From the NCBI GenBank assembly GCA_046563655.1, contig CM102285.1, forward strand, positions 7,192,001 to 7,256,000: 64,000 bases of DNA. The letters run 5' to 3'. Under the pieces are notes generated by a model that saw only the letters and a program-made list of their open reading frames with translations, did not search any database and was not told the origin of the DNA. Source of the stretch: Yuukianura sp. NJ FZ-2021. Taxonomy: Eukaryota. Positions 19,341 to 59,937 of this stretch are shown in pieces; within the stretch, counting starts at the first letter, position 1, and the number at the start of each line of letters is the position of its first letter. The translations under genes and the position numbers were made by a program.

Positions 19341-19355
19341 AGGCTCGTCCACTAT

Positions 19356-19851
19356 TGTAATGAAGTGGCCTTATTTTAGAAATGAAAGGTCAAGACACTA
19401 CTGTTTTGTGTTTCTGCTTGGTGCAGAAGGAAAATAACTTTTATTCAATTAAAGTTTAGTGAAAGGGGATTGACCTCGCAGGGTCAAGTTGGGTTGAACT
19501 CAGTCAGAGTTTGAGCAGAGTTCTGGTAGGTTTTAAAGATTGAAAGTGAATGATGATGGAGGGCATTGGCAACTGCTCCTTTTATAGGGCCTTACGAGTA
19601 CCAATGACCCCTTGACATTTAAATGAGGAGTAACTCGTAACTCCTCTGATGCTAATGAAAACAATGGCAATGAACTCAGTGAGTTCAAGAAACTGGATTT
19701 GAACTAGAAAAATCTATTTTTAGAGTAAAAAGTAACTTTGTACTTTAAGTTATGTGTTTTGTGCAAACACAGTTTGCACAAAGACAAAAGACAAAAGTTA
19801 TGAAATGGAAATGATCTGTATTTAACAGGAGATTGACCTTATTTCATTACA
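19356..19851 (-). repeat. 5' LTR (496 bp)
   Basis: Direct repeat of 13013-13509. Confidence 0.97.
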
Positions 19852-28052: not shown

Positions 28053-29432
28053 CTGCAAATCTGATTTCTTTAGGAAAAAAAACTTAGGCGTTTGCACTGG
28101 TTTTATGTTCAAAATATTGAAATCAGACTACACGTGAAGACCTTAGTTCAGCGGAGTGGGTGACTTGATGAATTGTTTTGAGCTTTTCACTGAATATTTT
28201 TCTTCATGGGTTCTTTCACTGTACAACGTTTTTTCTAATTAATTTTAGGAGTGACTCCAGTACCTTTGTTTAACTTGAAGCCAAGTTTTTAAAATTCACT
28301 GTGGAGTCCGAATGGAACTCAAATACAATTCAGCTAAGTTCACTCAAATCCTCGAATTTTTCAACCACGACACACGACTCGTGCATCACGAATCGTACGC
28401 TTAACACGAATCGAAGAACGTTTTTTCAATGCTCATAGTCTGCAACCAGAAAAAAACGTCTGCGGTTTCGCAAATGTTTGACAAAAGTCAAAAATTTAAA
28501 CTTTCACGGTCTGCATAACGGAACTTTGGTTTTGTGACAAGCTGTAAAACTTGTGGCTCCAGTCGTCTGAAAAGCAGAATTGACACTGACTTTGGAAGTG
28601 ATCAACTTTCACTTCGAAATCCCCTTCTCTTTGCGATCCTGGAACGTGTGCGTGGCTGCGAGAATCCAGATTTTATTTCCACTAGATTTAGAAAGCGACG
28701 CTGGATTCCCTAGCAGCGGATCCCAGCGTCTCCCTGCTTGCTCTCTTAACAGCCTTTGCTTCCACCGCCAACATTCAAACCCGCCGCGTTTCTGCTGAAC
28801 TTTCTCTGGCTCCAGTTCGAGTGCACTGCTGGAGCGCAGACAAAAGTCGTTGCTGGAGAAAGCACTTGTGCCCTGAGAAGTAATGAGGAGAAAGTTGCCA
28901 AGTCCGCGGAATTTTCTGCCCATTGCCTCATTCCAGCCAATTTGAAATTTCGCGCGCAATATGATTATGCTTGGAAGTGTGAGTTAACATGATATATATA
29001 TATATTTTTTTTTTAAATCTAACCGATGAAAAACTGAACTTGGTGTTTCGAAGCTGCTTGAAAAGCTAAAATTAATGAAAACGTTGTGACGGAATTTCTT
29101 AAAACTTTGGTGCCGATTACATTTTCTGTACGGAGTTTCATCGAGTGGATAATGTTACAACACAGGGGAAATTAAATTATCCACGGTTTTCAAGAAACAA
29201 TGCTCTTTCTTTCTTTTCTGATTTTTAAATTTTTGTGGCTGTGGTTAGTAGTGGGTTTCAGCTAAACTAATTTCATTAGTCCGTGCGGAGAGCGTCGTTC
29301 GTCACTAACTCTTGGCAGAACTGTTCCTTCTGCTTTCACTGAGACAACTGAACAGAATCAGCTCATGGGTAGTAGTCCCACTGTCTCTCAATTCGTTTTG
29401 CAACATTTTACTACTGGAAGAATTAAATTAAG

Positions 29433-31844
29433 TATGGTGGCCCCAGAGTGCCAATGCTGTTTTTCTCATTTTGTAATTCAAAAAGCATTTTCAAATGCAT
29501 TTTCAATTGCATTTCATTTTAAAAAGCATTTTCAAATGCATTTTCAATTGCATTTCATTTTAAAAAGCATTTTCAAAAGCATTTTCAATTGCATTTCATT
29601 TTAAAAAGCATTTTCAAATGCATTTTCATTTGCATTTCATTTTAAAAAGCATTTTCAATTGCATTTCATTTCAAAAAGCATTTTCAATTGCATTTCGTTT
29701 CAAAAACCATTCTCAATTGCATTTCATTTCAAAAAGCATTTTCAATTGCATTTCAATTTCAATTTCAAAATGAAAATGCACTTGGCCCTTCTGGGCTCCT
29801 AATTCAAATTCAATTTGAAAATGAAAATGCATTTGGCCCTTCTGGGCTCCTTATTCAAAAAGTGCGCCTCCTTCATACCATGTGACTTTTTTGTGTCTGA
29901 AAGTGGAAAAGTCTTGAGTTCCTATAGACATCACTAGTGCCAGTTCACAAATGGGCACAAATGCCAAATCTCAAATTATCGAATGTTTTGTTAATTTTAA
30001 GTTTGTATTCTAATTATCTATTCATTTAAATATTAATTTAAATTTTTCATTTCCATATTAATATATTCTACGGTGGTGATTGACGTTCTACTGTAATGTT
30101 TCGATTGAGTTGATCGTGTAATTTACACATGGTTACTGAAATGTCATAAATCTCTACATTGTAATAAGAATTCATAATTAAATTTATTGTAAACTCATTC
30201 CGAAGCGCAAATTCATTTGTTTTTAATTGGCCTTTGACTGCGTTTAGAAAGTCCAACGGACGTAGCTAGGACATTGAGCATATGAAAAGATACTAATTCT
30301 CAAAGCTAACGATTTCTCAAAAACGAAAGGTCAGAATTTGATGACGTGATGCAGGGGCAGTGTTGGCTTATTGTAGTACCTACACAATAAATTTCAGCTT
30401 TCCGACATCTCAACTCTAATTTTCCGATAAAGTGAAATCCTCCTGCAGGAAAACTTAGGTTATTTTGTTTTAGTCAACCCTAATCTTACTTGCCTACCCT
30501 AGCTAAACGAAAACTCAGATTTTCATGTAACTTTAGGGGTATAATTATTAAAGTGCTTAGAGTATCCCCTTTAATTTACAGCTTCGCCACAAGTCGGTTT
30601 CTTGGTGAAATGTTGGTGGAGATAGTGAGTCGACGATGGACTTCGTTAAGATAATAATTCTCAAAGTTAACCGTCGTCGTCTCGTCGACTCACTATCTCC
30701 ACCAACATTTCACCAAGAAACCGACTTGTGGCGAAGCTGTAAATTAAAGGGGATACTCTAAGCACTTTAATAATTATACCCCTAAAGTTACATGAAAATC
30801 TGAGTTTTCGTTTAGCTAGGGTAGGCAAGTAAGATTAGGGTTGACTAAAACAAAATAACCTAAGTTATCCTGCAGGAGGATTTCACTTTATCGGAAAATT
30901 AGAGTTGAGATGTCGGAAAGCTGAAATTTATTGTGTAGGTACTACAATAAGCCAACACTGCCCCTGCATCACGTCATCAAATTCTGACCTTTCGTTTTTG
31001 AGAAATCGTTAGCTTTGAGAATTAGTATCTTTTCATATGCTCAATGTCCTAGCTACGTCCGTTGGACTTTCTAAACGCAGTCAAAGGCCAATTAAAAACA
31101 AATGAATTTGCGCTTCGGAATGAGTTTACAATAAATTTAATTATGAATTTTTATTACAATGTAGAGATTTATGACATTTCAGTAACCATGTGTAAATAAC
31201 ACGATCAACTCAATCGAAACATTACAGTAGAACGTCAATCACCACCGTAGAATATATTAATATGGAAATGAAAAATTTAAATTAATATTTAAATGAATAG
31301 ATAATTAGAATACAAACTTAAAATTAACAAAACATTCGATAATTTGAGATTTGGCATTTGTGCCCATTTGTGAACTGGCACTAGTGATGTCTATAGGAAC
31401 TCAAGACTTTTCCACTTTCAGACACAAAAAAGTCACATGGTATGAAGGAGGCGCACTTTTTGAATAAGGAGCCCAGAAGGGCCAAATGCATTTTCATTTT
31501 CAAATTGAATTTGAATTAGGAGCCCAGAAGGGCCAAGTGCATTTTCATTTTGAAATAGAAATTGAAATGCAATTGAAAATGCTTTTTGAAATGAAATGCA
31601 ATTGAGAATGGTTTTTGAAACGAAATGCAATTGAAAATGCTTTTTGAAATGAAATGCAATTGAAAATGCTTTTTAAAATGAAATGCAATTGAAAATGCTT
31701 TTGAAAATGCTTTTCAAAATGAAATGCAATTGAAAATGCTTTTGAAAATGCTTTTCAAAATGAAATGCAATTGAAAATGCATTTGAAAATGCTTTTTGAA
31801 TTACAAAATGAGAAAAACAGCATTGGCACTCTGGGGCCACCATA
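29433..31844. mobile_element. Fold-back/palindromic element 2 (2.4 kb) with modular tandem repeats in its arms
   Basis: 29433-30636 is the reverse complement of 30682-31844 (45-nt loop). Termini TATGGTGG…CCACCATA; ATTAAG on both flanks. Arms carry arrays of TTTTCAATTGCATTTCATTTTAAAAAGCA, with ~41 bp more on the left. Confidence 0.93.
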
Positions 31845-33036
31845 ATTAAGTTTTTAATCAAATTCAAGATGTTTCTAATTTATTCCTTTGCTCTTCCTCC
31901 AATTTCTTGCCAAAACACTTTTGAGCAACTTCCATCACAGAATTCTGCTGAGAGTTCCCGCACTTCCCTTAAAATCCTGTTAAAGCTAATCCAACTTCAT
32001 AGTTTCCACAACATTAGAAATATACCAAATTATCAATAAAAAAAAATATAGTAAATTTTGGAGCCACTACACTTGTTCAAATTGACCTGTTCAATTATGG
32101 AAGGAAATAATACTTTCAGTGTATTGATATAAGGAAATACAGGGGTACTCAAAAGATTCCTTCGCACTTGTTTTGAAGTAAAATATTTTGTTATTGTAAA
32201 ATCCACAGGCAATTTCACTGATTATAGTTTGTCTCTTTTTAGAAGACACTTTTTGTTTTCGTCGTTTTTTCGCTTCCATTGCGACGCTTATGGAAGAACT
32301 CAGTTTTTCAAACACACTTTCTCCATTAGGTTTGTACACAAAATTTCAAAAAATTCATAATTCCTATGTTAAGAAGGAATAAGACATGGCAACGGTGGGT
32401 CTCGTTTTGCCTCAAATTAATTAATTTCAGGCTTAATAAGTCGTCACAGGAATGACCTAGAAATTTGTACAATAGCTCTAAAAATTCCTTGATATTCGCA
32501 GAATAATTATTAGGGCTCAGAATTTGACTTTTAGCAGCTGAATGATACTAAAAATCCGATACAAAGGTTCAATTTTGTATAAGTATTGTATGACACAAAA
32601 AATTTGGAAATTGGCCCCTAACTGTTATGCGCCATGGTCTTCCGAATTTTTAGACACCTTAAACGCATTTTTAGGTCTTATAAAAAAAAAGTTATAAGAC
32701 AAAACAGATGTAATTCTGACATTATTCAATAATTTGCAAATATCGGCACCGAAATCAACCGTCTCCATGGGCACAAGGTTGTTGTTGAGTCCCAGGTTGT
32801 TTGAATTCCTATCCTGCGAAAAACTTTGGTTTGTCAATCATTGGAAACAGTGCAAGTTTGAGCAGTGATTTTGCTTTGTTACTAATGACAATGGCTGACA
32901 CCAAATCGTAAACAAACGCTGCCTCTTACCCGTCCTTAACGGTCCATAAGGCGACTGGAATTGTTTTCAAATTTGAAAAGTGTCTTCTAATAAAAAGAGA
33001 CAAACTATAATAAAATAATTATTTTACACTTTATAG

Positions 33037-36000
33037 TTTTTTTTTTTTTTTTTTTTTTTAAATTTGAACAAATTCAATATTTTTAATTGACAGAACTGAA
33101 AAAACTTACACCTGCCAGAGGCAGGTTGAGGTATTTAAAGACGTATTGAAAAAATTTTTAAATCATATAAATTTCGTAGAGTTCTTTTCCTGACGGTAGG
33201 GTACCCAATATAGAAGTGGCATTTCCTCTTTGGATGGCAAGGCTAATTCGTTGAAAGAGGAAGGATGTTGCTCGATTGTCACCGGTGGCTTCTGAGAGGC
33301 GATGTCCAATGGAATTGAGTAGACGTCGGCCTTCTTCCCCGTAGACTCCAGTTGTCTCGACTGCAATGATGGAAACAATAAATCGATGATCAAGGTCACG
33401 GTAGAGGTCATGCTTATGGATTTCAGCAACGGCAGCAGGATGACCGAGAACGGAGGATGATGTTGCTAGGTAGGACGCAGCGAAGGTGTCACGGCAGGTA
33501 AAGTCCCAGGCAAGGGAGCGACCGGACTTCCAAGGAATGAGAGTGATTCCATCAGGTCGCTTTCCATCAGTTCTGGAACAGCCGGAAGGTTCTTTCATAC
33601 ATGGTATTCCACTTGTTTGAAGCGATCTTGAAATGATGTCGTTTACAGCGGCGTGTCTTGAATGTCTGCCTGCACTTCTCGTACAGCTTAGGCCGTGCAA
33701 GCCGTTGCTTGATACCAAAGTTCCGCATGGACATCGATGAGGTTGGCAAATTTCGGTGCCTAGCCGCAATCCACAAGAAATTCTGAAGGTTTGGTCTGAA
33801 AGGAGCGTCCCAAGAGGCGAAGATGGAATAGCCAGTAGCCAATCTCCAGAATGAGGGGCGGCTGAAGCAAGCAGTCGTGCTTTATCGATGAGAGTGGTTG
33901 ATTTCTCCAGCAGGTTGGAGTAGATTTTTTCGAAGATCTGAATTTCCCAGAGTTTTTGTATTTTTCCATCTTGCGGCGTTATGAAGTCCAAATTTGACCA
34001 ACTGAGGGAAGCAAGGTCCACTGACTTATCGAAAGGCGAAAGATGTGGTGGAAGGAAGGTAGAAATTAGTTCGGCACAACTATAGACTGAAGCCAAAAAG
34101 GAAAATGTAGCACAGTCCGTCGCGTGGCGAATGCCTAAACCCCTTGATTCACAGGCAAAGAAGACTGCAACCATGCTTCTTCATTCAAACTTGAGTTCAG
34201 GATGGATTCCAACACGGTGCGTAAAGCTGAGTCGTAAGCTTGTAGGAGGTCAGGTTCGAGGAATGCAGGAGAACATCTGACAAAGTACAGAAGTCTTGGT
34301 GTTGAAATTGATGCCCTAAGTAGAAAAAACGCTACATGGGCTGGCAGGCAAGAGAGTCTTGATGAAAGTCTGTTGAAGTCATCAGTTTTGTATTTGAGGA
34401 TACGACGTGAAGATTCTTTGAACAGAGGCGCTCCCAACAGTTCCGTTTGTTCTTTCTCGGGGAAGACGAACTCCGGCGAAATCGATTTGAAGGAGTTTGT
34501 GATTAACTTTTGTTCAGACTGGTCGGCAGACAGAATGATTACTTCGCATTTCTTCATGTTCAAATGCAGACCAAAAGAACTGGCACTAGATTGGATGGTT
34601 ATGAGGTTTTTGAGCACAACATCTGGAGAGTCGCCAATTGTCGCGTCGTCTAAGTACCACGAATTGAATTCGGTCGTTAGGGATGCGGCTAGTGGGTGAA
34701 TTGTTAGTGCGAAAAGTGCAGGACCCAATGGGCAACCTTGTTGGACTCCTAACTTGGACTTGATGCAGCTAGAGTTGTAGAAGAGGTCTGATTCGAACGA
34801 GTATGCTTGAGAGACGAAATTGAAGATTTCTGGTAGATGAGTTTTCACAGCATTCAGCATTTGATCTCTTCTGATAAGATTAAAGGCGTTTCGAAAATCC
34901 AACTTCAGAAGAACCTTGGGAGAGGCGTGATTGGCGTTGCAGAAGATCCTGGCAGCGTGAGCCACGGCTTCGGCTCCGTTCTTGACGCCGACGCCTGTTT
35001 GAATTGGATGTAGGATGGACGAAATGGCGTTCATTGAGCGCGACAGGATTAGCTTCGACACTAGGCGTCTCCAGGTGAGGCCGATTGCAATTGGCCGGAT
35101 TCCACCTTTTTTCTTCTGAATCGCAATAAGGGAAGCACCGAAGAACACAGGCCGGATGTCGACAGGAAGAGAATCATTAGCGATGAGATTGCACAGCTTG
35201 GAAATTGAAGATAGCAGCGCTAAACCTGCATCTCCTGATGATTTTGATGTAAGTTCTTTTAGTATTTGAGGACGAAGCGAGTCAAGGCCACCGGAAGAAC
35301 CATTTGGGAATGAAGAGATAGATTTCAGGATGTCACTTTCTTCGAAAATGATGTTTGTTGGAGAAGGTGGGTCTGGCATGACGGTTGGTAGAGGATGAGC
35401 CGGGTGTAACTCGTGGAGGGCTTCAATAGTGGAGGAGTCATCCGATGCCAAACAGTCATCAGAACAGAGAACTCGAATGGATCCACGAATGTCGCCGTCC
35501 GCTAGTTTAGATTGAACAAGTTTGGAACAATTCCAGTGTTGGGATGATGGCAAGTAGCGGGGGAGATTATGAGTTGATGGTGAGTTGAAGAACGTAGACG
35601 ATGAGGAGGAGAAGCGGTTGACATTTGACTTCACCCATTTGGTCAGATTTGGAACAGGGTCTTCTTTTTTCGGAAGATGTAGTGCTGCATATGGAAAACA
35701 GAAAAGCCTTTCCCACGATTCCGAGGAGTTCTCGGTAACGACTTGTTCTATGACGGCGGAGAGTGTGGATGCCACAACTTGTCTAGCTCCCTTGGGGATG
35801 TGTTTGAGAATTTGAATTGATTTTTTCAAAAGTGCGAGTCGTGAACCAATAGTAAGATCCGGAGATGATGATTGAGCAGTGGGGTCCAAAAATGTAATCC
35901 CAAGATACGATTGTTCAATGTGTTTCCGTCCGCTCGCCCTTGTTTTGGTGATATTTGGAAATATCTTCAAAAGTTTTGAACCCATGGTTGTGTCAGCTAG

Positions 36001-36730
36001 TGGTTTGATATGAATTGATGCACAAAAGCGGTGGTATTTGTCTTTAAATTCCTGCTTTTTCATCAAACCACCGGAGACAAGGCGGATATTGTTTGAGATC
36101 CAGTCGTCACTTAGTTTGGAAATTACAGATTTGCTTCGATTCTCGGAAGTAGAAGTACGATTGGAGAATGTCTGATGTCTGGCTGAATCGTCAACTCCCA
36201 ATCCGCAGTCATCTAATGATGACCCGATTCCGGGAATCTCCACGATTGTAATGTCACGGATCGATGTTTCTGGGTCGTTTTGAACGACATTGGGATCAGA
36301 CGAACAGTCAAAAGTAAAGTTGGTTTGAGAGTCTTGATTCGGATGAATGTTTGAACTGAAGTTTTCCATTCTCTCACTTGTTGTTGTTGTCAAGGTTATG
36401 CGAATGATAATTGTGAATTCGGAATTTTTCGAAGAAAAATTAGTGAAGGCCCAATGTTGTCCAGGAGATAAGCAATTGATGATTTGTTTGTTTGAGTTAT
36501 GATGTCTTGAGAGCGAATTTTGGAGTCAGAATTTCAGGACTTTGGTTGACGAAAGTGGGCCAGTTGACAAGTGTCCGGTTGTAAAATGCATGTAGAAGCA
36601 CATCAAAGGATGCGCGACAATGAGATGAACAATCTGATATGAAAATGATGGACTTTTGTACTAAATTCACTCAGAAAACAATCAAAAACTCGGGAGCGAA
36701 TTTTTGCGTGTCAACAGATTGTTTTTTCTA
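33037..36730 (-). mobile_element. CRE-like non-LTR retrotransposon (RT plus restriction-like endonuclease), apparently full length
   Basis: Poly(A) tail seen as T23 at 33037-33059; TSD candidate TATAGTTT at 33032 and 36731; single long ORF with RT and RLE. Confidence 0.9.
33158..36369 (-). CDS. Non-LTR ORF: RFX-like winged helix, RT, CCHC finger and PD-(D/E)xK endonuclease; one frameshift at ~34140
   Basis: Motifs IRPIAIG, KLDFRNAFN, GVQQGCPLGPALF, WYLDD, CPCG…HGLSC, RHAAVND, KRPDG…AWDFT and AVETTG. The conserved LP…GGLG is broken by a G4 run where G5 would restore the frame. Confidence 0.9.
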
Positions 36731-38324
36731 TATAGTTTATTGTCTGTGTCATTTGTCAGTGAGGAACTGTTTAATTTAAAGAAAATTTGAAATTTAAAGA
36801 ATTTAAAGAAAATGGCTAATGAATGATTCAATTGTTATTTTAGTTAGTTATTATTGCTTACAATAATAGCTAACTTACTTTGTTTAAATTCTCACTTTTA
36901 GAAATCACACATATTACACTATGAATTACTCAGTTCCTTCTGCAACTCTAACACAAATTCGTTGCAGCGGATGTTGTTTTCTGTTTGTAATCCATTTAGA
37001 AATGGTACTACGCATGGATGATTCAAATTGCGTCATGACCTTAGCTGTTATATTATATGTGACATTGGCTTCGCGTATTCACGACAAGCTCAAGTAGTTA
37101 TTCTTGAAAGAATGTCACAAGCGGGACAAAGCTGTCAAGTTCCTGGACAGAGAGAAATATCCTCCGTAGTGTTTTTGTCTTGAATTTTGATCAGTGAAAT
37201 GATCTTGTCGCAGAGGTCATTTTCCTCTAGCTCTTTGATATTTCCCCCGAGGCTATTTACTACTTAGGCAGTCAGCCTATCATATCCACTGTCGCTTAAA
37301 TATAGCGTAACTTTCACATGGAAACTAACGTAACACAATCCTCCCAAATTTACACATTCACATCGCTTCCAACAACTAAAACCTAACTTTCCAGTGCTCT
37401 TTATTGAAGTTTGACCACTGAAATCATTCTCAAAGCTACGGTATTAGTACCTGTTTATTAAGGACGCCCAACAAGAGTTAATGGTCAAATTCAGTAACCA
37501 AGACAACCGATACTTGTGCATCTAATAAAAGTTGCAAACATCGGCAAAGAGAAGCTGCCTCGTTACTGGTGAAAAACTATTATCCTAAAGATGAGTACCA
37601 TATTTTACGTACTTTATCAACATTTGTTTTTATAGAAAGATGATTTATTTGTCAAAGTTTTAGAGTAACGACAAACTAATTTTCAAAACTGGTGATACAG
37701 AGATAAGATTATTTTTGTATCACTGTTTTCAAAATCTTCAACTTGATTCTTGTTTTTACCACTCGTGTGCTTTACCTTATAAACATTCACACTTGGATTC
37801 TTGAAGGAATTTGGCGCTATTTATTAGATAAGCTCACTGAGTACAAATGACGGGGAACGTTTTGCGCACGGCGAGTTCACATTAGGTATAGACAATTTTT
37901 TTTTGCAAAGAAGTTAATTTAAAATTTGATGGGATAAATTTAAAATTGGATTGGATAAATTCTCAACCCTATATTGATATTGTTTGATGAAAAACTTTTC
38001 AAACTTCGTATTTTAGAAACAGAAGAAAGTATTAACTTTCACTTTCTCCATACGCTAACTATGCAGGAAAGATGGGATCGAGCTCATCTTCTCACTTTGT
38101 TTAGGTTTTGGAAAGTTGTCGAGAAGTTAAGTGGGAAAGCGAAAAGAAAGGTTTTGAAAGCGATTAATCACTTTCAGCATTAGTTTCCTCATGTTCACAG
38201 TCTCTAGCGCTCATGCCTAGAGACAGCGGATAAGTGATTTTTAAAGTCCCACAACTGAACTTTCTCCGGTCACGGAGTCACATCCTCATCTACTGAACCG
38301 CCGTCTCCTATTAGCTCTAAACAC

Positions 38325-38485
38325 ACTAGACGGAACCCGTGATGTTTACACATCACGATGACATGAAGGAAGGATGATTTTGAACATTTTGTCAAAAATC
38401 CGCTAGCTTTTTCGTTTGACCCGAGGTATGACCTAGTGCTTAAAGGTAATTTCGTGATGCGTAAACATCACGGGTTCCGTCTAGT
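38325..38485. repeat. 161-bp inverted repeat whose 34-bp arms each resemble a Helitron 3' end
   Basis: ACTAGACGGAACCCGTGATGTTTACACATCACGA and TCGTGATGCGTAAACATCACGGGTTCCGTCTAGT; each arm is a hairpin followed by CTAG|T. Confidence 0.75.
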
Positions 38486-40804: not shown

Positions 40805-41300
40805 TTATTAAGTAGCGAATGTGTGAGTTACTTTATGGTTTTCCACGAGTGTCTGTCTGTCCGTCAGTCTGCTGGTCTAGCTAGCTCTGGAACCACTGGA
40901 CAGATTTTCAATATGTCTTCGCAGATGAACTTCACATGGTCCAGGTATGATTAATCGGTTTCGGGGATCGGACAACTTCCGGGGCAAAGGTCAAGGTCAA
41001 GTACTGTTTTGGCGGAATTCGAAAAAATGACCTCCACCAAAGCTGTTCATCTCCTTGAGCTGAACAACTTTTGGATATGTGACCTTGACCTTTAACCTAT
41101 GGTTCTGGAGATATAGTAAACGTTGGACGTTGTAAAATTTCGTACCTAACCATGCTACGCGCGCCTATACCTCCGGTACCACTCCACCGATTTCCACTCC
41201 GTCTTCATAGATGAACTCCACACGGTGTGGGGGGGTGATTAATCTGTTTCCTGTTTGACCGGAAGTGGACAGCTTCCGGGTTGTGCCCTCGTTTTAATTT
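40805..41300 (+). mobile_element. Helentron/DINE-1-like non-autonomous element (boundaries approximate)
   Basis: GTCTGTCTGTCCGTC microsatellite, then blocks shared with 62300-62600 (actggac, cttccggg…aaggtcaaggtcaa, gttcatctc…aacaactttt). Confidence 0.6.
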
Positions 41301-43953: not shown

Positions 43954-46569
43954 ATGAAATCAGCATTGGAAGTTCTTGCAGTTTTTGTTGTATCTTGGCG
44001 ATTTCAATTTCGTAAGTGAATTGATAATTTCGGTTATGGTTATACTTTACTCTATACTTACTTGTAGCACGTTTTCTTAGCTTATTAACCTAAAGGTTCG
44101 GTACCCAAACCTAACCTAACGCCTTTTTCGCTTCCGATTTTGAAAGCAACTGGACTTGGATTGAGTGTACGGAACGTGACAATTCCGAGGTACGGGATGA
44201 TGGGCGGTTCGGCGTTGCTGAGCTGTGAATTTTCTCTACTACCCTCCGACAAACTTCTATTTCTGAAGTGGTACAAAAATGGCGAAGAATTTTACCGTTT
44301 CACTCCAGCATCAGACCAGCCAATCCTGACGTTCCCAGCAGAAGGAGTCGTTGTTGAAGTGAGTAAAGACAGTGAAGGCTTATTACAAAAGACGAGTGAG
44401 ACAGATATACTTTACAAACAGCAGAAAGGAGAAAGTTCAAAGGTTCTGCTTTTATTTTACCCCCGCTTTCCTCAATAGGTAGTCTCCATCTAAAACCTAA
44501 CAATTTCTAGCTTAAAACAACCTCACCATAGCCGACTCTATTTCTCCTCACATAATATAACGGGAAAAAGAAGGGAAAATAACAAAGTAAAGACATCTCT
44601 GTCAAGTGGTGACGGTGAGTGAAAGGGGAATTGCCACCTTCACTTCAACTGCTTTCTTTTCCCTCTATTTCAGCTTCATTTATACACACAAAGTATGGAT
44701 AGGGTAAACCAGAAAATAAAGGGGGTGTTGCGTTAGGCTAGCTTCAGGTCGGTTTGGTTAGTCTTTATTAAATAACTTTTTCTATGTCCCGTTTCAGTTG
44801 TCAAGGTCTAATTTCAATCAATTAGTTCTGAGGAACTTGACACTAAGTACTGGCGGTTTGTACAAGTGTGAAGCCATGGCGGAGGGAACTTTTCAGGCAC
44901 CATATGGCACGGGGTTAATGACCATAATTGGTAAGAAGTGGCCTTTGATCCTTCACTTATTGAACAGACTTGTATATTTTATAACAATCCCTTTGCTATA
45001 TTACGCAAAAACAGCACCCCCTGAAACGATTCCAGCGATTGTCGGAGTTCCTCCACTTGTGAGTGTCGGAGATCGAGTCGTAGGAACTTGTACGTCTTAT
45101 AGAAGCAAACCAGCCGCAGCACTCACACTCTACGTCGACGGTGTGGCCGTAAGACTTTAATTTTTCCTAAAGTTAACCTAACATGCGATTTATGTTTTAC
45201 ATGTTAACTTGCGTGAACTTAGCATTGAGTCATTAGAATGTGAAATTTTTTATAACTTCCGTTGCCGAATAATTTTCGTAAATATTATCACTCGTGCATA
45301 GACGTGGATTAACTTGACCGGAAAACGCTTGCGATATACGGTAATAATAATCATCCTCTAAACTGATTTCCGTTGTTCCTTGCTAATCTGTATCAAATTA
45401 CATGAAAACCCATGCTTACATGATGTGATTTTACCTGGCGGACATAGCGACGTACAAAAACATTAATGTAGACAAACATTCTTTTGATTTTTTCGCAACC
45501 AAGTTATTTGGAAAAAATTAAACTTCCCAGTAATTAGAAACTTTAGGTCATTTCCACTTGTAATTGCTCTTTTTCGTTCAGTTGAAAGAACCAAAATTGC
45601 TTTGAAATAAGTTCTCAGATTCCGCGTCCCTCGTGGGACTGCTAGGGGAGACATGGAGATCCCAAGATCATTTATCAAGAGAAAACTACCGAGAAAAATG
45701 GAAAGCGCCGGGTTTTGCTGTGTGGGGAGCAACTAGATTGGTTACAGAAACGCCACTGGGGCACTGGTTTCAGTCTCACGTCCACTTTCTCCATTTCCTT
45801 GGACTGGACGCAAGAAGACGGAGAAGTGGATCAGCAGAGAAAAGATTAGGAAGAAGACATAAAAAGTTTAATCTTAAAACCCCGTGAATTCTGTGTGCGG
45901 CGATTTTAAAAGAAATAGGGGCATGGAAGTGGAGGGTCAAAGTCAAAGTGAAAAAAACCCAAGAAATGGCTTAAAAGTTCATCGTAATTATCTTGCCCTC
46001 TGCTTGCGCACATTCAAAATTTGAAAACAGCTGGGAAATCTGAGAAATGTAATTGAGCATTTCAGTACCGTATGATTAAAGCGTGAAGTGGTTTGGATTG
46101 TGTGCTTATGTAGAAACAATAGCAGTAGCCCTTTTAAAATGTTTTTTTTTGTGCAATTTACAATTGATGGTTAATTTTAGTTGGAGCACGCAGACTTTAA
46201 CGAATCTGAACCAATACTGGAACCAAACGGTTTGGAAACTTCTGTATTGGAGTTCAATTTTGTGGCGGAAAGACATCATTTTAAGAAGGGTTTTATGGAC
46301 CTGCGTTGTACAGCAACAATCCTCAACCTGTATTGGGTAAACAGTCTCAACGTGTCGGAGATCAACGTCAATGCTCAACCTTCTCACACTGGACGAACTT
46401 TCCTGCCTTCATCTGCTGGTAAACTTTGGAATTTTTTCTATTGGGTAAAGAGTTAAATCTCATTTTTGTTTTTGTTTCAGTGTCCGTCCTGACTCCTGCA
46501 CAAAGGTTCTTGATGCTATCAACGATTCTGTTCGAATTGATTTGGGAAACCGAAGTGATGACAACTTAA
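43954..46569 (+). CDS. Beaten-path (Beat)-like immunoglobulin-superfamily protein B, 6 coding exons, ~287 aa
   Basis: Exons 43954-44011, 44147-44358, 44798-44930, 45015-45148, 46181-46418 and 46481-46569 join in frame with GT-AG. Motifs ALLSCEF, LKWYKNGEEFYRFTP, GLYKCEA, GTCTSYRSKPAAALTLYVDG and LRCTATI. Confidence 0.87.
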
Positions 46570-46812
46570 ACCATACATCATTTCAATCAAAATATTACGA
46601 AAATAAATGTTGTGTTTTTGTAATATTTGAATTGATAAACTCCCTATATTATTATCTAGCCTACGCTACTTTATGCATTTTATACTTTATCCTTTTTTAC
46701 TTTCTCATTGAGCGCTCTCGACCATACGTTTCCTTTTTGTAGTCATTCGACGTAGAAGTGGTAGCCTGCCCAGGCGGGCTCATCCCGCGAGGGATTTTTG
46801 AAGTAAATGTAA

Positions 46813-47401
46813 AGAAAGATAAATACAAAATCGTACTCTTACAAAAGCGTAAAATTTACAAAAGCTACTTTACAAATTCGTAACCTTCAAAAGAGTATTC
46901 CTACAAAATCTTATTCATACAAAAGCGGATCCTTACAAAAGAGTTTGTGGCTCAATAATTTTTTTTGATCTTTCTCACAAGTAATTTTGTGATTTTGTTA
47001 GCAGAAAAATTTTCAGCAATAATTTTGGCTAGGATTAAGTTAGGTTGGCTGCACTTTTGGTTTTTGGAATTTTGCTTAGCTTACATAGGATAGGTTAGTT
47101 TAAAGTACATTTCGGTCAAGTTAGGCCAGGTTAGCTTGCTATTAGTATACGTTTTGGTGAGGTTATCTTTTTATTTTTAGTTATAGGTTGAGCTAAAAGT
47201 GTGGTATAGTTAGGCTTGCACATTTATCTGTTTTTGTAGGAATCCTGTGTTGTAAGAATACGATTTTGTAAGATTCCGCTTTTGTAAATGTACGATTTTT
47301 GTAGGTATACTGTTTTGAAGGTTACGAGTTTGTGAAGTAACTTTTGTAAATTTTACGCTTTAGTAAAAGTACGATTTTGTATGCGTGCTTTTGTCGGGGA
47401 G
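46813..47401. mobile_element. MITE with ~120-bp diverged TIRs built from TACAAAA subrepeats (possibly Mutator-like)
   Basis: atacaaaatcgtac…aaagcgtaaaatttacaaaag…cgtaaccttcaaaa is mirrored at ~47290-47385; flanks taaatgtaa / ttaatgtaa resemble a 9-bp TSD; left tip eroded. Confidence 0.65.
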
Positions 47402-47787
47402 TTAATGTAACGTAAACAACATTCAGATGCAGTGCAAAATTTTGGCAGCGAGGAAAGGCTTTTTAGAAGAAATTTTATGATTTAGCGCTTCCAACCATAA
47501 CCTAATGGGAGCTCTCTTTTGTTCTGTTGCCAAAGCTATTTACACGTATAACCTCTGACTCCTGCATTTTGTTTGTTCCCTTGTTTGCAGTGTTGTCAGC
47601 AGCCCCGCCCTACTACTGGGGACGTTGATGGGGATTCTTGTTGTTTTCCCCACCTTCGGGGGTGGGGATTTTGGTATGATGGGATTTCGCTCTTTCTAAC
47701 GAAAAAAAATGAGTTTTTTTTGGTTTGCAGTATAATAACTCGTATATAATGGCATCTTAAATGCTGCGCTGAATATTATATACTATA

Positions 47788-48944
47788 CAAGGTATGATAC
47801 CCGCTTGTGAAAGCGGGGCTAGCTTTTGTGGTAGTGTATACGAACACACATAGAAAAACGTATCACTTTTGGGGACCCGCTACCCATTTGAGATACATGC
47901 TGACCCGCTTGGACTATTTTTATGAAAATATCCTACCCTACCCTTCCCTACCCTTTGCCCAGGCGGAAGTCCCTTAAAACTACCCGTCCGTCCAATTAAT
48001 GTTTAACATGTAGAGACAACAATTTACGGTGGAACTTAGTTCTTTTTGGTGCCAAAGGTCACGGAATTAACGCGCCAGACGTCAACCGAGTCAATTTGAC
48101 CCCCCCTTTCGAATGAAATATCACAGGCCAATGTTTGTGTGTACTTCTTATGGGGTCACCGCCATAGATCAAAGGTCAAAGGTCACAGATCAATCTCATA
48201 TATCAATAGACTGTAGTTGACTGAACCTCCCCTTTCGAACAATGTATCACATGCCTATGTTCAGCTTAATTATATATGAGGTCACCGCTTTGGGTCAAGG
48301 GTCATAAGTCTCAACTTAATGTGTTATATGACATTCTACTCTGGACCTTCCCTCTCGAACAACGTATCGCATGCCTCTGTTCAGCTTAATTCTTTGAGGT
48401 CGCCACTCTGGGTCAAGGGTCAAATGTCACAGGTCAATGTGTCATACATCAATCGACTAAACTGGACCTCCTCTTTCGAATGATATATTGCATGTCTGGG
48501 TTTGGTTTAATTCTATGTGAGGTCACCGCTCTGGGTCAAGGGTCAAAGGTCATAGATCATCGTGCCATACGTCAATCAACTCCTTTCAACCTCCCCGTTC
48601 GAATGATATATCACATGCCTATGTTCGGCTTAATTCTATGTCAAGTCACCGCTCTGGGTCAAAGGTCAAAGGTCACAGGTCAATGTGTCATACATCAATC
48701 GACTGCATTTGACCTCTGCTTTCGAATGACATGTCACTTGCCTGTGTTTGGTATGATTTTATGAGGTCATCGCGCTAGGTCAAGGGTCAAAGGTCACAGG
48801 TCAAGATGTCACATAGCCTATGCTCTTCGGGGTGACCTCACGAAGAAAAGGACACCTCATTTGTCCAAATCGGTCCAGTAGTTTCGGAGGAGTAGTGGAA
48901 CACACACACACAGATAAACAGGGTTTCGATTTTATATAAGTAGA
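47788..48944 (-). mobile_element. Non-autonomous Helitron with an internal six-unit ~122-bp tandem array
   Basis: Minus strand begins A|TCTACTTATATAAAA and ends with hairpin CCCGCTT…AAGCGGG then CTTG|T; (TG)n near the 5' end; repeat units with TCGAA at ~48109, 48235, 48355, 48476, 48599 and 48722. Confidence 0.85.
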
Positions 48945-51900
48945 TATAATTTGTCAAACGTATTATAAATATTGTATTATATATTATAAATAGTTTGCAT
49001 ATTATATTACATTTCAGACATTATAAATATCATTATTACTTATATTTTGACAGTGTATATAATTTATAATATTTTATAATATGATAAATTGTAAGTAATA
49101 TATATCAAATAATCAACGCCGGAATTAAGTTAAAGTTTCAAGATGAAGGTTATGAACAAAGAACAAAACAGGGAACGTGTGAGAATCCTCCGGACAGAGC
49201 TGCACTAAATTTTGGGTTTGCGCAGACGCTCCGCGTGCGCTGTACAAAACATCGCCAGAAATCCGAAAATTTCCAAATCCACGGGGAATCATCCAATCCG
49301 CGGAGATAAACGAACACGGCCTGTTAGGCTAACCCGCTGGATTTTTATTCGAACGGTATTTGGACCTTATTCTTTGTTATCTGGTGTCCAACCTCCTCAA
49401 AAGTAACGTTATTAATGTTGTCCACTGCACCATGGTTCCAAGCTTGTGTAAAACGAAATTTTGTTAATTATTTCTCAACAGGTTATACAATTCCTCCTAT
49501 TACTATTCCTATTAAAAATTGTTTGCTTTGCATTTATGCTCCGATTTTTTGACTTCAGGCGTTGTAAAGTAGTAAACATTGGTAGCCCGAATATTAGTTT
49601 TTTTAAGGGGTGCAACATGTCCACGGCATTTGAATAAATGAAGAGACACCAAAAGTAGGAAGGAGCTTTCTCAGTCGCAGTTTGAATGACTTGGACAAAA
49701 ATGAAAAACTCAACTGGAAACGCAGAGAAGGCTAAGAAAAAGCGCGCTCCTACAAAATTATTGAATCAGTACAAGCAGTTCCGCGTTCCGCTTTCACTGT
49801 AACGTAGACCTAGTTTTCTTCGTCCTCGCATCAGAATTTGAGGAGCCCTTGAGTTTACAGACCCCGCCATATTATAAAAGTTTGAATTTGCATTTGGAAT
49901 AAAAAATGAATTTGAGTAACAGTGGAACTGAATTCAAGTCAAGTTCTACTTTCTTTTCCTTTTTCTTGAGAACTAGAGAGAGAGACAGAACATGCATTTC
50001 AAATGACCAAGAGATCTCAAGGGACGGTGGAAGCTTTTGTAAAGGCCCGCATACTCCACAATGTCTCTTGAAATTTAACTCAACCGAAGAAAGGAATCGC
50101 TTCAAGCTAAAATGAAAGTTGTCGAACCTTAAGGCTACTGAGAAAGTTCGACGTTCAGTGTCTGCGGCAATTAGGATTTTTGTTCCAACCCCATGATGAG
50201 ATTCCCACATGGCGGCAAAGATAGGAATAGCACACTGAGGCTTTAACTCCAAATGATCACCGTTTCAAGTTACATAAAAGGTAAAAACTTTGGAGCATAA
50301 GGTACTGTACTTTTTTGTTTTCTTTTTATTTTTTGTTTTTGTTTTGGAATCCATCCTCTATTGTACAGAATAATTTGATAATGATGCAGGAGGCAGGAGA
50401 AAGCACTTAGATCTGGTTTCTCGCAATATCTCGCTGCAGCTATGCTAAAGCTGTTAGTTATGCTTTCTTCGCTGCTGCTCAATCGCCAGAAGCGTAACTC
50501 AAATTATGTAAAATCCAGAGGAAGTAAGTGGTCCCTCCTCAAAACCAAGAAGTTCTGTTTCTCCTTTCTTCTTAATTTCCCTAGGAGCAGCAGCTTCCCA
50601 GCATTTGAGTCTTAACTTTCGCCAGAGTGAGCAATTATTCATAACGGAAGAAACATTCTGATTCCGGTTCCCATTTGCATTTAGGTGCTTGTGTCCCCTC
50701 GGACCTTGCGGGCACAGCAAAAGATCAGCAATAATCCTGGTAGGTACAATAAGCACCGAATTCCCGCAGGCTAAAGTCTGCCTGCATACATTTCCCTCAG
50801 AAACAGACACCCAAATTTTCAAACCATGGAGTGACAAAAACGTTGTGATTAAGTTTTAGAACTCAATTTTACGTGTGAAATAATGTATACCTTTAAATAA
50901 GTTTGACATAACTATACTCTATACTGTAGTCAATGCAATTCTCATGGGTGACACGTTAGTGTGTCCGCTAAGGCCGAAATGTTAAAGAACAGCTTTGATA
51001 ATTCAACTTACCCTTTGTAACGTTTCTAGAGCAACAATAAACTGGAAGTTCTTCGGGAAAAATTGGCAATAACATCAATAATGTCTGCGAATTGCAGATT
51101 ACTGTACGAGGACCCGAAGATAAGTCGTATCGTTAGGTCTAACAGCAAGTAGACATTGTGTGGGGAAGGAAGACGTCGTGTGACTAGGCCAGTCACACGG
51201 AGGAAGCAAAGTCTGGTTGTGTAACCATGGTGCAGTGGTCAACACTGCCAACCTTACTTTTGCTTCCTCACAATTGACTGATCGCATTTGATCTTGAGAG
51301 AGGCAATTCGACTTGTGTATTGTACAGCGGCATCCTCCAGAACTTTCGTTGCCTGTCTCCTAGAATGTACCTTCTAGTTCGTAATTCGAGAAGAAGGTAA
51401 GAGGTCACCCTTCCCCGGTGAACAGGTCATAATAGCCAAGAAATCAGACGAAGTGGTCACAGTGACTGCTTTACGATTATGAGAACGGAGCAACATAGGG
51501 AGCGGACTACAGCATAAATGCATGGGGAAAGCGGGGAAGAGAAAGTGAGTCAATTGCCTCCATTGACTTGGAATTTATTCTCAGAATCAATTGAGTGTAA
51601 GGGGAAAATATCCCTTACAGTCTCTTCGCACTGCCAAAAAGATGTCTGGAAAAGGAGAGAAATTCTTCCTCCGAAAGGTTTAGGTTGCGTAATGTCCTAA
51701 ACTATCACTTTCACTAAAAAACGTACAAAAGTTCGAGGAAAGACAATCAAAAGATTTGAACGTTCAATAACCATTCTTCTGTATGTCGTTTTTGAAATTC
51801 AAAAATTCATGCTTGGCTCCAGAGATTTTTAAATCTAAAGACACATATGTGTTGTATTTTGTTTTCGTCAATTTGCATAAATTGCCAGAAATTCGGAAAT

Positions 51901-52909
51901 GAATAAAATATATCCAAAAAGATGAGCGCCTAAAGCAACTGTTTTTGGAAAAATAGTTAAAAATTTTTTTTCATAAATAAAAGCGGGAAAAAAGATGTGG
52001 TGTATATTTAAATTATTTTGAACCTTATGCAAAAAAGGAGAGAAAAATGTTATGATAGGCCTGGGACTAATTCGAACATCCTGCCGAAGTGTTATTTCTC
52101 AACTGGTGAGAGGATATGAAAAGAAATCAGAGGGAACCCGAGAGAGGACTTTCTACACAAAAGTGAAAGTGATGGCAAAGAGCATGAATAATGATGAGGA
52201 AAGCGAGAGCCTTCTTCATATGCTTTCTGCTCATTCGTAGCCTCTTCTGGTAAAAGCTTTTTAGGTTTTTATGGACTTGGCATTTAACCACAAATGCCAA
52301 AATCCCTCATTTGAAAAACTTGCAAAGACCTTAATCAGAAGCAGCAGTTTACCGAGTTGAAAAACGAACGTAGCAGCGAAACCCCCCAGAGAGTAACAGC
52401 TTTGAAGTAGCATATTCAAATAAGCTATTTGAATGTTCAAATAGCTTAACAGTAAACGCCGCTAAAACCCTGCCGAAAGTCAATCTCCGGACAGCTTTCA
52501 ATCATATTCCAAATTAACCTAACCCACTACCCCGTGCTTTGACCTTTTGACAGAATCAGAAGCACGCCATATAATCTTTTCTAGTTTACCACATTTACAT
52601 TTCGTTCAACTTCTATCGTATTCTTCCGTTGCAATTTGGAATTAGTTTAAGTAATTAAATACTAACGCTGTTTAGTAAGAAATGCCTGGGGTTGAACTAC
52701 TTCGTCTGTTTTGCTATAACCATTTTCCACAAGCATGACCGAATTTCCAAATGAGTCCATTCTAGGCTTCTGTAGGGGAATTGAATAGAAAATTAGATTG
52801 AGATAGGTTTGAGATATTTGAGAAAATTAGATTGAGGTTTAGAATTTAGAATTCAAGCCGAAACCAATGCAATCCAAAAAATTTTTATCTCGAACATATC
52901 CGATACCAA

Positions 52910-53869
52910 CATAGAGTAACCATGACGATTCGATTTTTTAGAGTGGACATAAGGCATTTTTTCAACAAAATTTTTGAAACAAATTAAAAGAGGTTAAAAG
53001 AGGTAAAAAACCGCTTTCATCCGAAGTTTAAGCAAGGTCCACACAAGAAATGAAATTAAGATTTTCAGTCTTCAAAATTTCCAAAATTATGAATAAAATT
53101 GCGAAAAGCAGGGGTTTTGAGACAAAATATCCGCCCATATCTGTCACGATACAACTGGTGATTAGTAGTATGCCCAGAAGAGGTGTCAGCAACCCAACAC
53201 TTCGTCCTCCTGCTAAAATTGCTTTCGAAAAAGTTAAATTAAAGTTTTCCTAGCTTACTTTGCTTCACTTGGTCATTAGACAATACTGTAAGATTAGGTT
53301 TCATTACATAGCCAAACAGGAAACCATTAAGCTAAACCCAAGTACTACAGTAATGGCCTTATCTTAGAAACTCCTCTGATTGGCTCTTCTCATTTCTCTC
53401 CTCCCACGGTTACCGTAAAACTTCTAGTAATGTGCAAAACTCTTACATTGAGTTGAGTTTTGACAATTTCTCTTCTCGCCTTCCCTCCATAAGTTGGAAG
53501 CTGGCGGTATAAGAGGAGGGAGAAAGAGGGATAGCGTGGTTTCTAACATAGGGCCATTTACGTATTCGTAACACGTAACAAAACTATAATTTTCAGAGGT
53601 CAGTAATGCTAGATCCAGAGTATTTCCGATTCGCGAATTTAAACTCTCCTGTGAAATAAATTCTCCATTAATTCTAAAAGTTTTAAGTAGTTTATGGTAA
53701 TGGTAAAATGGTACCTGCAATTCATCGTTTGTGTGAACCTAGCTTAAACTTGAGATGAAAACGTTTTTTTTTTCGCTTTAGAAATGTTTCAAAAATTTTG
53801 TTGAAAAAATGCCTTATGTCCACTCTAGTTAAAAGAAAAAAAAAATCGAATCGTCATGGTTACTCTATG
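52910..53869. mobile_element. Non-autonomous P-element-like TIR transposon
   Basis: TIR CATAGAGTAACCATGACGATTCGATTTTTT… (~70 bp, with an insertion on the right); perfect 8-bp TSD GATACCAA at 52902 and 53870. Confidence 0.88.
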
Positions 53870-55462
53870 GATACCAATCAGAGACCGAGACGAGACCAAA
53901 CCGAAGAGGTGAAAACTATAGGTCTATTGGTTGAGTGATTTATTTATCATACCTGCAAGCCTTGTCATCCTGCAACCAGGTAGTTACACCATGGCTTATT
54001 AAGTTAAGTGTTATGTAAATCAAAATTAATTTCTAACAGAGTGAACTATTGTAAATAAAAAGAAAAACTATTGAGGGAAATATTGTACTTGCCTCGAATA
54101 GACTGAATTGAGCATTGAGCTACCGTAAAGCTTGTAATAAATGCCATGGTGTTCATTTAAATTCTCAACTTTTAACCCCAGCGTTTGGTAGAGACCGGCG
54201 TTTATTAGAAGCTTTACAATATTATACTATAATATATTATAAACTAAGGGTTGAACCAAAGTTCACAGTTATTAAAGATTAAGGGAAGGAATAAAACTAT
54301 CGTTCGATTTTCCATTTTGCGCGGAAGCAAATTTATAATGTTAAAGGAATTCAATTCACTTGTCGCTAACATTATAGCACTTCTTGCTAACCATAGTGCA
54401 GGTTTCTGTACGTTTGGTTTTGAATTACAACCAAAATCAGTAGTACTAATGGAGAATCGATTCTGGCCTTAAAAGTATGGATTTTGTTTCCTGAAATATA
54501 CCAAATTTTGACATAGACTATCGTATTTACCCTATTTCAGGGCGTATAACTCGTGGGATATCTGGTATATTCTGGCCCAGCATGAGGGCCAAAAAAATTT
54601 CTTCCACATTTGTTGTTTTATTCTATCGGTCTAATACTGTAAAACTAGCCAAACGCTCTTCATCCTCCTAGAATTCAGTGTGATTCGCCAGAGCCCCGAT
54701 AATCCCCAAATCTCCGGGAACTATGGGTTAACCCCAATTCCCCGAGGGAATCTTCAACTCCCTGGGGAAACGCCAACACTACTTAAATTGTGACCAGGAC
54801 GATTGAGCGGGTCTGGAGCGGAGCCACAACAAGCTTTGTTGCGCAAAGCTTGTCTTATATATATAACACATTTTATTCTTGGGTGCGAGTATACGCGAGT
54901 GTGGGCTACGCCGTGAAATAGGGTACTTTTAGGTGCGAATAGTATTTCTTACACACCAAACAATGATAGCTGCACGTTAGGATACGCTGCGTTATGCTGT
55001 GTTTAAAGCCTTTTGAAATAACTACGGCAATTTCGAAAACGGTATTTTTCCATCGACCACTTTTCAACTTGACCGCGTTGGCACCCATCCGTTTACGTCA
55101 CGGTGTAACGCTTATGGTTTGGCCGGAGTGACATACAGTCGAAATCGTGACGTGCTTTTTTTATAACATCATTGCAAAGTTTTAGAACTGTACGATGTTG
55201 GGCTGAGTGAGTATTTAATATATTTTCTCAAATTATTTCACAAAAGTTTATTTCATTGTACTGGTATATAAGTATAAATATACCACCAGTATGTCAAATT
55301 CAGTATCTCAAATTCATTCATGAAATAACTCTACCTCCGAATCTCTTAAGTTAGTAATATCGACCTCCCGCGTGGTGGTTCAATAATGTTTCCAGGTCGT
55401 CCGACCAAATATGCATTCAGTGGTAGGGTCCAAATCTGTTTACCTCCAGCCCCCTGCAATCA

Positions 55463-56574
55463 TATGGAGGGAGTTGGGTGACAAAATTATTTTTAAGTTT
55501 CGCGCGTTAAAACATGTTCCGCCAATTAAAAACTAACGTTTTCGCGTATTACTTTAATGCGCGAAAACTTTTTTTAATTGCAGTAATTTTAAATTGCAGA
55601 AAAATTTTAACGCGCGAAAAAGTTTAAGCGTACGTTAACGGAACGTACGCTTAGGAAACGTACGCTTAGGGAACGTACGCTTAGAAAACTTACGCTTTAG
55701 AATGCATGTCCAATAGAAATAACATTGCCAGAACTGATCAGAATTAGTATTCTGTAAATTATTATTTATTGTCTATTATTATTTATTATTTATTATCTAT
55801 TGTAAACTATAAAACACTTCTTTTCTCATATGCTTTGTAAGGTTTTCAAAAATGTGTAGCCTCATCCAGTGTTGCTGGATATCCACTTTTTCGACATTTC
55901 GTCCACGGCTGGATATCCACAGGAAGAAATGGACGAATCCAAAGGGGTGGAGCTTTGCCCGCGTGGTTTGAAATACTTAAATCCAAAAAACTTAAGAAAT
56001 TCAAAATACCGTACAAAAACAAAGGAAATGTCGTTTTTGAGTTTTAAATAAATACTTAATTTTAGCAATAAAAGAAACTCCTTTTGATCTTTTTTGTCCA
56101 GCCGTGGACGAAATGTCAAAAAAGTGGATATCCAGCAACACTGGATGAGGCTACACATTTTTGAAAACCTTACAAAGCATATGAGAAAAGAAGTGTTTTA
56201 TAGTTTACAATAGATAATAAATAATAAATAATAATAGACAATAAATAATAATTTACAGAATACTAATTCTGATCAGTTCTGGCAATGTTATTTCTATTGG
56301 ACATGCATTCTAAAGCGTAAGTTTTCTAAGCGTACGTTCCCTAAGCGTACGTTTCCTAAGCGTACGTTCCTAAGCGTACGTTCCTAAGCGTACGTTCCGT
56401 TAACGTACGCTTAGACTTTTTCGCGCGTTAAAATTTTTCTGCAATTTAAAATTACTGCAATTAAAAAAGTTTTCGCGCATTAAAGTAATACGCGAAAACG
56501 TTAGTTTTTAATTGGCGGAACATGTTTTAACGCGCGAAACTTAAAAATAATTTTGTCACCCAACTCCCTCCATA
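55463..56574. mobile_element. Fold-back/palindromic element 3 (1.1 kb)
   Basis: 55463-55913 is the reverse complement of 56097-56574. Termini TATGGAGG…CCTCCATA; CAATCA on both flanks. Arms differ mainly in copy number of the ~14-bp AACGTACGCTTAGG unit. Confidence 0.93.
55867..56143. mobile_element. hAT-like MITE at the centre of palindrome 3
   Basis: CAGTGTTGCTGGATATCCAC…GTGGATATCCAGCAACACTG; a related copy lies at 2614-2795. Confidence 0.7.
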
Positions 56575-56613
56575 CAATCAGCACCATTAGCAACGAACGC
56601 AATTTTTTGTTTG

Positions 56614-56754
56614 TGACGTCACCAGCTGAAAAAATACCGTAATCGTGATATTTTAACCCGCTGGCATCTATGTAAACAAAATGCGGTTTGCGGGTTTCTA
56701 TAGGACACCATCATTAATACGCGGAATTCCGGTATTTTTCAGCAGGTGACGTCA
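56614..56754. repeat. Small inverted repeat (MITE remnant)
   Basis: TGACGTCACCAGCTGAAAAAATACCG / CGGTATTTTTCAGCAGGTGACGTCA. Confidence 0.6.
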
Positions 56755-57019
56755 TTTTTTTTTCCACATGGCAATCAAACAAACTTTCTATCCGCACTAC
56801 CTAGTAGTATTCTATTTACATTGGTCCGGAGGTAGGGCGTTGTGATACAAACCATTCCAGAATATGATACTCCAGGTCAGTGAATACCAAAATATTATGT
56901 CCTACTTGACGTTAGGCAAAAGCGTTTGGAAAAACGAGCATGTTTTACATCCTTAATGGGGCTTCACGCAAGAACAGGTCATTTTTCCGAAATGTGCGGG
57001 AAAATTACTTTAGTGAGAT

Positions 57020-59860: not shown

Positions 59861-59937
59861 TCTTGTTTCTTGTAAGTTTTTTGAAACAAGGATTTGAAAA
59901 AAAAACGGAAATTAAAATTTTGAAATAATTTTTTCAG

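Follow-up and report, generated by a model that had tools for sequence, protein, structure and literature searches.

To which kind of transposable element do two nearly perfect palindromes belong that end alike and whose arms are otherwise unrelated? The question is raised by a stretch of 64,000 nucleotides from Yuukianura sp. NJ FZ-2021 (GenBank assembly GCA_046563655.1, contig CM102285.1, positions 7,192,001 to 7,256,000 of the forward strand), called the window below and numbered from its first letter. An initial annotation of the window, made from its letters alone, had numbered three large inverted-repeat elements, and had proposed that two of them, elements 2 and 3, which have TATGG…CCATA tips and duplications of the target site (TSDs) that are 6 bp long, represent a possibly uncatalogued fold-back group moved by a single transposase for which a short motif at the termini would suffice. 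The analysis reported here leads to a different answer: the kind is already known, and elements 2 and 3 are new-looking members of IS3EU/GingerRoot rather than a new group. More precisely, we consider it likely, with a probability of about 0.8, that they are non-autonomous copies of two different IS3EU/GingerRoot families, in each of which one end region has been duplicated in inverted orientation.

Structure of the two palindromic elements

Element 2 (29433–31844, 2412 bp) and element 3 (55463–56574, 1112 bp) are both annotated as non-autonomous, foldback-shaped and of IS3EU/GingerRoot type, and neither they nor their TSDs are assigned to a strand. Element 2 is bordered as ATTAAG|TATGGTGG…CCACCATA|ATTAAG, with TSDs at 29427–29432 and 31845–31850 and an outer perfect terminal inverted repeat (TIR) of 88 nt. 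Its two halves align with 1158 matches, 7 mismatches (99.4% identity) and a single gap of 41 nt, which corresponds precisely to one repeat of the tandem array (unit 41 nt) carried in the arms: the subterminal array of the left arm (29480–29767), built of GCATTTTCA-type sub-motifs, has 6.9 units and that of the right arm (31551–31797) has 5.9, one unit below the left. Between the arms lies a unique centre of about 45 nt (30637–30681), and none of the scanned open reading frames (ORFs) inside the element has a Pfam match.

Element 3 is bordered as CAATCA|TATGGAGG…CCTCCATA|CAATCA (TSDs at 55457–55462 and 56575–56580), with an outer perfect TIR of 112 nt. Its arms contain two segments of 100% identity, the outer 112 nt and an inner one of 274 nt, and a 15-nt tandem array with a CGTACGCTTAG core that is repeated 4.6 times on the left (55629–55697) and 5.7 times on the right (56313–56396), the right array being 28 nt longer. 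The unique centre measures 183 nt (55914–56096). The central part also holds a much more abundant short repeat, which starts with CAGTGTTGCTGGATATCCAC and occupies 55867–55937 and 56105–56143; a 40-nt core of this repeat recurs at 2619–2668. The sequences that flank it in element 3 are inverted copies of each other (…GCCTCATC|CAGTG… and …CACTG|GATGAGGC…) and not the direct duplication that a later insertion would be expected to leave, an arrangement that fits an origin of the palindrome by back-copying.

Both elements were recovered by a scan of the whole window for inverted pairs, in which 11-mer seeds at most 8 kb apart were extended outward to the last complementary base. With the minimum set at 12 nt for the perfect TIR and at 4 bp for the TSD, the 559 candidates were reduced to eight rows: four of low complexity (54–148), a weak one with a 4-bp TSD (10561–11398), elements 2 and 3, and a 960-bp element with an 8-bp TSD that is described below. 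Taken alone, TATGG…CCATA between identical 6-mers is insufficient as evidence, as it occurs on average in 0.51 pairs per shuffled window (200 shuffles, maximum 4) and was observed twice; elements 2 and 3 exceed chance in that both pairs also form the tips of perfect inverted repeats, 88 and 112 nt long. The sequence and this strict scan thus confirm the coordinates, tips and 6-bp TSDs first given for the two elements. They likewise bear out that both are near-total palindromes whose tandem repeats differ in copy number between the arms, and the common ends and 6-bp TSDs support the view that both are transposon insertions of one group. An alternative parse of element 2 with an 8-bp TSD (AATTAAGT), to which the initial annotation had drawn attention, does exist in the sequence and does not work for element 3.

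The claim that the arms of the two elements show no similarity past the first 8 nt or so is close to correct. No cross-match was found between them by blastn (word size 9, E ≤ 1e-3), and their internal repeats are distinct: GCATTTTCA occurs 24 times in element 2, never in element 3 and nowhere else in the window, and CGCGAAAA (6 times) and CGTACGCTTAG (9 times) occur in element 3 only and nowhere else in the window. Over the first 21 nt, nevertheless, 13 of 21 positions are identical, in a pattern that fits the end consensus of IS3EU elements.

Match to the IS3EU/GingerRoot signature

IS3EU elements are described as having TA..TA termini and TSDs that are usually of 6 bp (PMC10045372). For GingerRoot, Cerbin et al. 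(2019, PMC6839031) give 5'-TA…TA-3' ends in 72 of 77 intact elements, TSDs of 6 bp with the exception of five of 7 bp and one of 8 bp, and TIRs of 100–150 bp; the elements often carry gene fragments, and relatives occur in a coral, an oyster, fish and Bemisia, a whitefly. The IS3EU families of rust fungi have 6-bp TSDs and the termini TAYGG..CCRTA (Kojima 2025, PMC12730594). The tips of elements 2 and 3, TATGG…CCATA, agree exactly with TAYGG..CCRTA, and both elements have a perfect 6-bp TSD, TA…TA tips that directly adjoin it and a TIR longer than 30 bp, as do IS3EU and GingerRoot elements. They also have in common with these subterminal short repeats, non-autonomous derivatives, internal tandem repeats, which have been reported in other IS3EU-derived elements, and occurrence in arthropods, where IS3EU has been recorded in a beetle, in Tribolium (IS3EU-1_TC) and in Bemisia.

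The resemblance extends beyond the first five nucleotides. Among the 27 IS3EU consensus starts of Table S1 of Kojima (PMC12730594), 26 are TAYGG and one is TACAG; 14 of the 27 read TATGGAG, 12 of these being TATGGAGG, that is, the first 8 nt of element 3, and one consensus starts with TACGGTGG, close to element 2. A 21-nt end consensus was derived as position-wise IUPAC codes from 14 rows of Table S1, namely its first 15 less one that has a 1-nt indel. With at most 3 mismatches it has 6 matches in the window, compared with an expectation of 1.84 ± 1.29, a count attained in none of 100 dinucleotide shuffles. Of these matches, four coincide exactly with the tips of elements 2 and 3, facing inward and having 3 mismatches apiece: 29433–29453 (+) and 31824–31844 (−) in element 2, 55463–55483 (+) and 56554–56574 (−) in element 3. 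The remaining two (52754–52774 and 61568–61588) lack a TAYGG start and are at chance level. Given TATGG, the fit of positions 6–21 has p = 0.0027 per element and about 7.5e-6 for both. The proposal of an uncatalogued group had been made on the understanding that the ends match no described family; as 6-bp TSDs together with TATGG…CCATA are the published IS3EU/GingerRoot signature, it fails.

Read evidence around element 3

Contigs of four public runs from two studies (X1–X4) were aligned to window positions 50001–60000, which include element 3, at a likeness of at least 85. In X1 the word depth in the four bins of element 3 is 12,965, 59,258, 12,566 and 18,450, compared with 151 and 120 in the adjoining bins (55011–55344 and 57015–57348), and in X4, a run with a second organism label, it is 92, 1112, 142 and 387, compared with 5.5 and 1.7; we take this depth to mean no more than that element 3 occurs repeatedly or in numerous contigs. 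The peak bin is accounted for by the abundant short repeat in the centre of the element, where all four runs have loose contig ends, 20–44 per run, at 55867, 56105 or 56143. X4 also contains a 188-nt contig of the arm (55482–55669) with 2 differences. At 55494, within the perfect TIR, the window has T, and nearly all depth is A in the four runs (21,607 of 22,459 in X1), which indicates that this copy of element 3 differs from the majority of its family. On the left, contigs of X1–X3 that cover 55029/55035–55449 stop short of the element by 13 nt and leave 37, 8 and 10 letters unaligned. The right flank (56581–57014) is itself very deep (19,561 in X1), so that element 3 seems to lie beside or inside another repeat.

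The 960-bp element served as a positive control for the detection of read joints. This non-autonomous element (52910–53869) has CATAGAGTAACC… tips, a perfect TIR of 30 nt and an 8-bp TSD, GATACCAA (52902–52909 and 53870–53877), and its precise empty site is present in all four runs, as a joint from 52901 to 53870 that skips 968 nt and shares 8 letters. The 960-bp element is therefore an insertion polymorphism.

Element 1 and other features of the window

Element 1 (5515–9596, 4082 bp) was said to begin similarly, with TAATGG…CCATTA. The motif is present; it lies 3 nt inside the real end of the element, which is AG…CT (AGCTAATGG…CCATTACCT), so that its TA does not adjoin the TSD. The element has its own perfect 6-bp TSD, GGTATT (a 6-mer would match by chance at a single given offset with a probability of 0.0005), and TIRs of about 410 nt with 82–83% identity, in which 24 of the first 25 positions pair. 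The 21-nt IS3EU pattern, allowing up to 3 mismatches, has no match at its ends. Element 1 is thus not of the TATGG kind; its AG start is in common with Polinton, as described in PMC6839031. It contains an asymmetrically placed inner palindrome (6506–9203) with 1313-nt arms of 99% identity. A 164-aa ORF within it (6840–7331) was dropped, its translation being of low complexity and without a Pfam match.

Several other features are of a different nature. On the minus strand, 14233–19370 is a Ty3/gypsy element that may be young, with an uninterrupted pol frame of 1415 aa (reverse transcriptase, RNase H and integrase) and a gag frame of 302 aa. Also on the minus strand, 33161–36525 contains frames of 340 and 796 aa, the second with a reverse-transcriptase domain and also, though weakly (E=5.8e-6), a match to RFX DNA-binding. 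On the plus strand, a short ORF at 45606–45884 matches Pfam Transposase_20 (IS110/IS116/IS902) over 53 residues (E=1.4e-5, 25.8 bits for a cut-off of 21.3); neighbouring ORFs contain no companion domain, and such a fragment is odd for an animal-like genome. The window further carries exons with Ig domains and a proprotein-convertase gene whose named relatives are all from insects, at about 45–75% identity.

Alternative explanations

Several observations weigh against assigning elements 2 and 3 to IS3EU/GingerRoot. The 64-kb window contains no IS3EU-type transposase and no autonomous copy, its sole rve domain being that of the Ty3/gypsy element. The Pfam scan on which this statement rests covered 9 long ORFs and, out of 127 stop-to-stop ORFs with a length of 75 aa or more, a further 93, the other 34 being mirrors of the other arm of element 1 or overlapping identified genes; it yielded the Ty3/gypsy domains, a reverse transcriptase, the convertase and Ig exons and the 53-aa IS110-type fragment, and nothing else. 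The 21-nt consensus was written after the ends in the window had been seen, though before the last 12 rows of Table S1, and it represents rust fungi only, so that it may not represent the ends of animal IS3EU elements. In addition, the Melampsora and Tuber rows depart from it beyond TAYGG, and the likeness is consequently to the Puccinia families and not to all IS3EU. As for the reads, summed word depth is not copy number, and no empty-site joint across element 3 is present among the 15 joints listed out of 54. Finally, a TSD of 6 bp is not specific, as hAT6 families also give TSDs of this length (PMC12730594, citing Repbase Reports 2007).

This last point leads to the explanation that survives best after the IS3EU/GingerRoot assignment, namely that a hAT transposase mobilises elements 2 and 3, which would be non-autonomous members of a hAT subgroup with 6-bp TSDs, hAT6 or hATx. 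The 960-bp element, polymorphic and flanked by an 8-bp TSD, points to recent cut-and-paste activity in the same window. Elements 2 and 3 agree with hAT6 in the length of the TSD; their tips fit TAYGG..CCRTA, and the 21-nt IS3EU consensus matches exactly these four ends. The tip of hAT elements is usually YARNG, which TATGG does not satisfy, and no hAT transposase or domain was found among the ORFs scanned in the window. We therefore regard a hAT origin as improbable.

We give still less credit to a wholly uncatalogued foldback superfamily whose ends would resemble those of IS3EU by convergence. No transposase in the window is tied to elements 2 and 3, and a literature search found no work that connects IS3EU with foldback, two facts that such a superfamily would account for. 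It would, on the other hand, have had to converge both on the length of the TSD and on the 21-nt end, the latter with the probability per element given above, which makes this explanation very hard to sustain. The same small weight is given to the idea that elements 2 and 3 arose from Polinton/Maverick elements by deletion and owe their insertion to a Polinton integrase. Polintons also have 6-bp TSDs and long TIRs (PMC10045372, PMC6839031) and an integrase of a related clade, and element 1, in the same window, starts with AG and has a 6-bp TSD. The tips of Polintons are nevertheless 5'-AG…TC-3' (PMC6839031), and those of elements 2 and 3 start with TA; Polintons moreover are self-synthesising elements of 15–20 kb, and no Polinton gene was found among the scanned ORFs of the window. 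Least credible of all, and close to negligible, is that these are immobile local inverted duplications, palindromes of replication or repair lying between short direct repeats by chance: arms that are 99–100% identical, as after a very recent duplication, and a bare tip-and-6-mer pattern expected about 0.5 times per shuffled window would agree with it, but two independent cases have the same 5-nt tips, perfect 6-bp repeats and a fit to a foreign 21-nt consensus, and the depth of element 3 is raised in four runs of two studies. A reading of the ends as retrovirus-like TG…CA tips with two extra bases was also rejected, because TA adjoins the TSD directly in the integrated copies.

Comparison with foldback elements and a possible mechanism

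Returning to elements 2 and 3 as IS3EU/GingerRoot derivatives, what sets them apart is their shape. Compared with the 100–150 bp TIRs of GingerRoot, their arms measure about 1200 bp (element 2) and 450 bp (element 3) and make them near-total palindromes; unlike IS3EU and GingerRoot elements, they have no coding sequence and no linked transposase in the window. Neither the foldback shape nor these particular families were found for IS3EU/GingerRoot in the published literature searched, and their exact 20–22-nt ends had no match in public viral, metagenome and prokaryote genome contigs. Very long TIRs, internal tandem repeats, a small middle and no ORF are features that elements 2 and 3 have in common with the foldback elements FB of Drosophila, Tetris and Galileo. 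These differ in their TSDs, of 7 bp in Galileo, 9 bp in FB and 8–10 bp in Tetris, which is assigned to Mutator; elements 2 and 3, with 6 bp and TATGG tips, lie outside the 7–10 bp that characterize Mutator-type or P-type foldback elements. As this shape is considered to have originated separately in several superfamilies, its presence in IS3EU is unsurprising.

IS3EU/GingerRoot transposases belong to the DDE enzymes of IS3/IS481/retroviral-integrase type (PMC10045372, PMC6839031), and such enzymes attach the ends of the element to target phosphates separated by a few bp, the TSD resulting from gap repair (PMC10045372). We propose that elements 2 and 3 are mobilised in trans by an IS3EU transposase whose gene lies elsewhere in the genome. 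The enzyme would bind a conserved end of about 21 bp (TAYGGNGG…G.CA), inverted at both tips, and join the ends at target positions staggered by 6 bp, repair of the stagger giving rise to the ATTAAG and CAATCA duplications. The subterminal arrays, made of GCATTTTCA units in element 2 and of CGCGAAAA together with the 15-nt CGTACGCTTAG unit in element 3, could be additional, family-specific binding sites or satellite-like expansions; reiterated subterminal motifs within the first 250 nt or so are present in the fungal IS3EU consensus sequences (PMC12730594). The palindromes may have formed when one end region was copied back during repair or replication, through a template switch or a hairpin, and later slippage would explain why the arms differ by whole units (41 nt and 28 nt).

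The initial idea of a single transposase that recognizes a short motif appears weakened, to judge from the ends and arrays in the sequence: the conserved end is about 21 nt long and not 5, and the arrays have no common motif. Because these subterminal arrays differ completely, elements 2 and 3 are probably served by two related transposases rather than by one that they share.

A bolder interpretation is that elements 2 and 3 are the first foldback-shaped IS3EU/GingerRoot derivatives, with a 21-bp tip conserved from rust fungi to an arthropod-like animal, and that the palindromes are possibly a by-product of IS3-like strand copying and not of ordinary gap repair. Taken as a whole we hold this to be unlikely. 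If the conservation of the 21-bp tip is true, it points either to an unusually constrained contact between the transposase and the end or to transfer between kingdoms.

In practical terms the claim of a new transposon group is removed, and elements that combine a 6-bp TSD with TATGG…CCATA should be annotated as IS3EU/GingerRoot. The end motif of about 21 nt that elements 2 and 3 have in common with the fungal families provides a search pattern for the annotation of non-autonomous IS3EU elements. The foldback shape would extend the list of superfamilies that produce it, and the presence of young copies, with arms 99–100% identical, near a polymorphic element with an 8-bp TSD suggests where an active IS3EU transposase might be sought.

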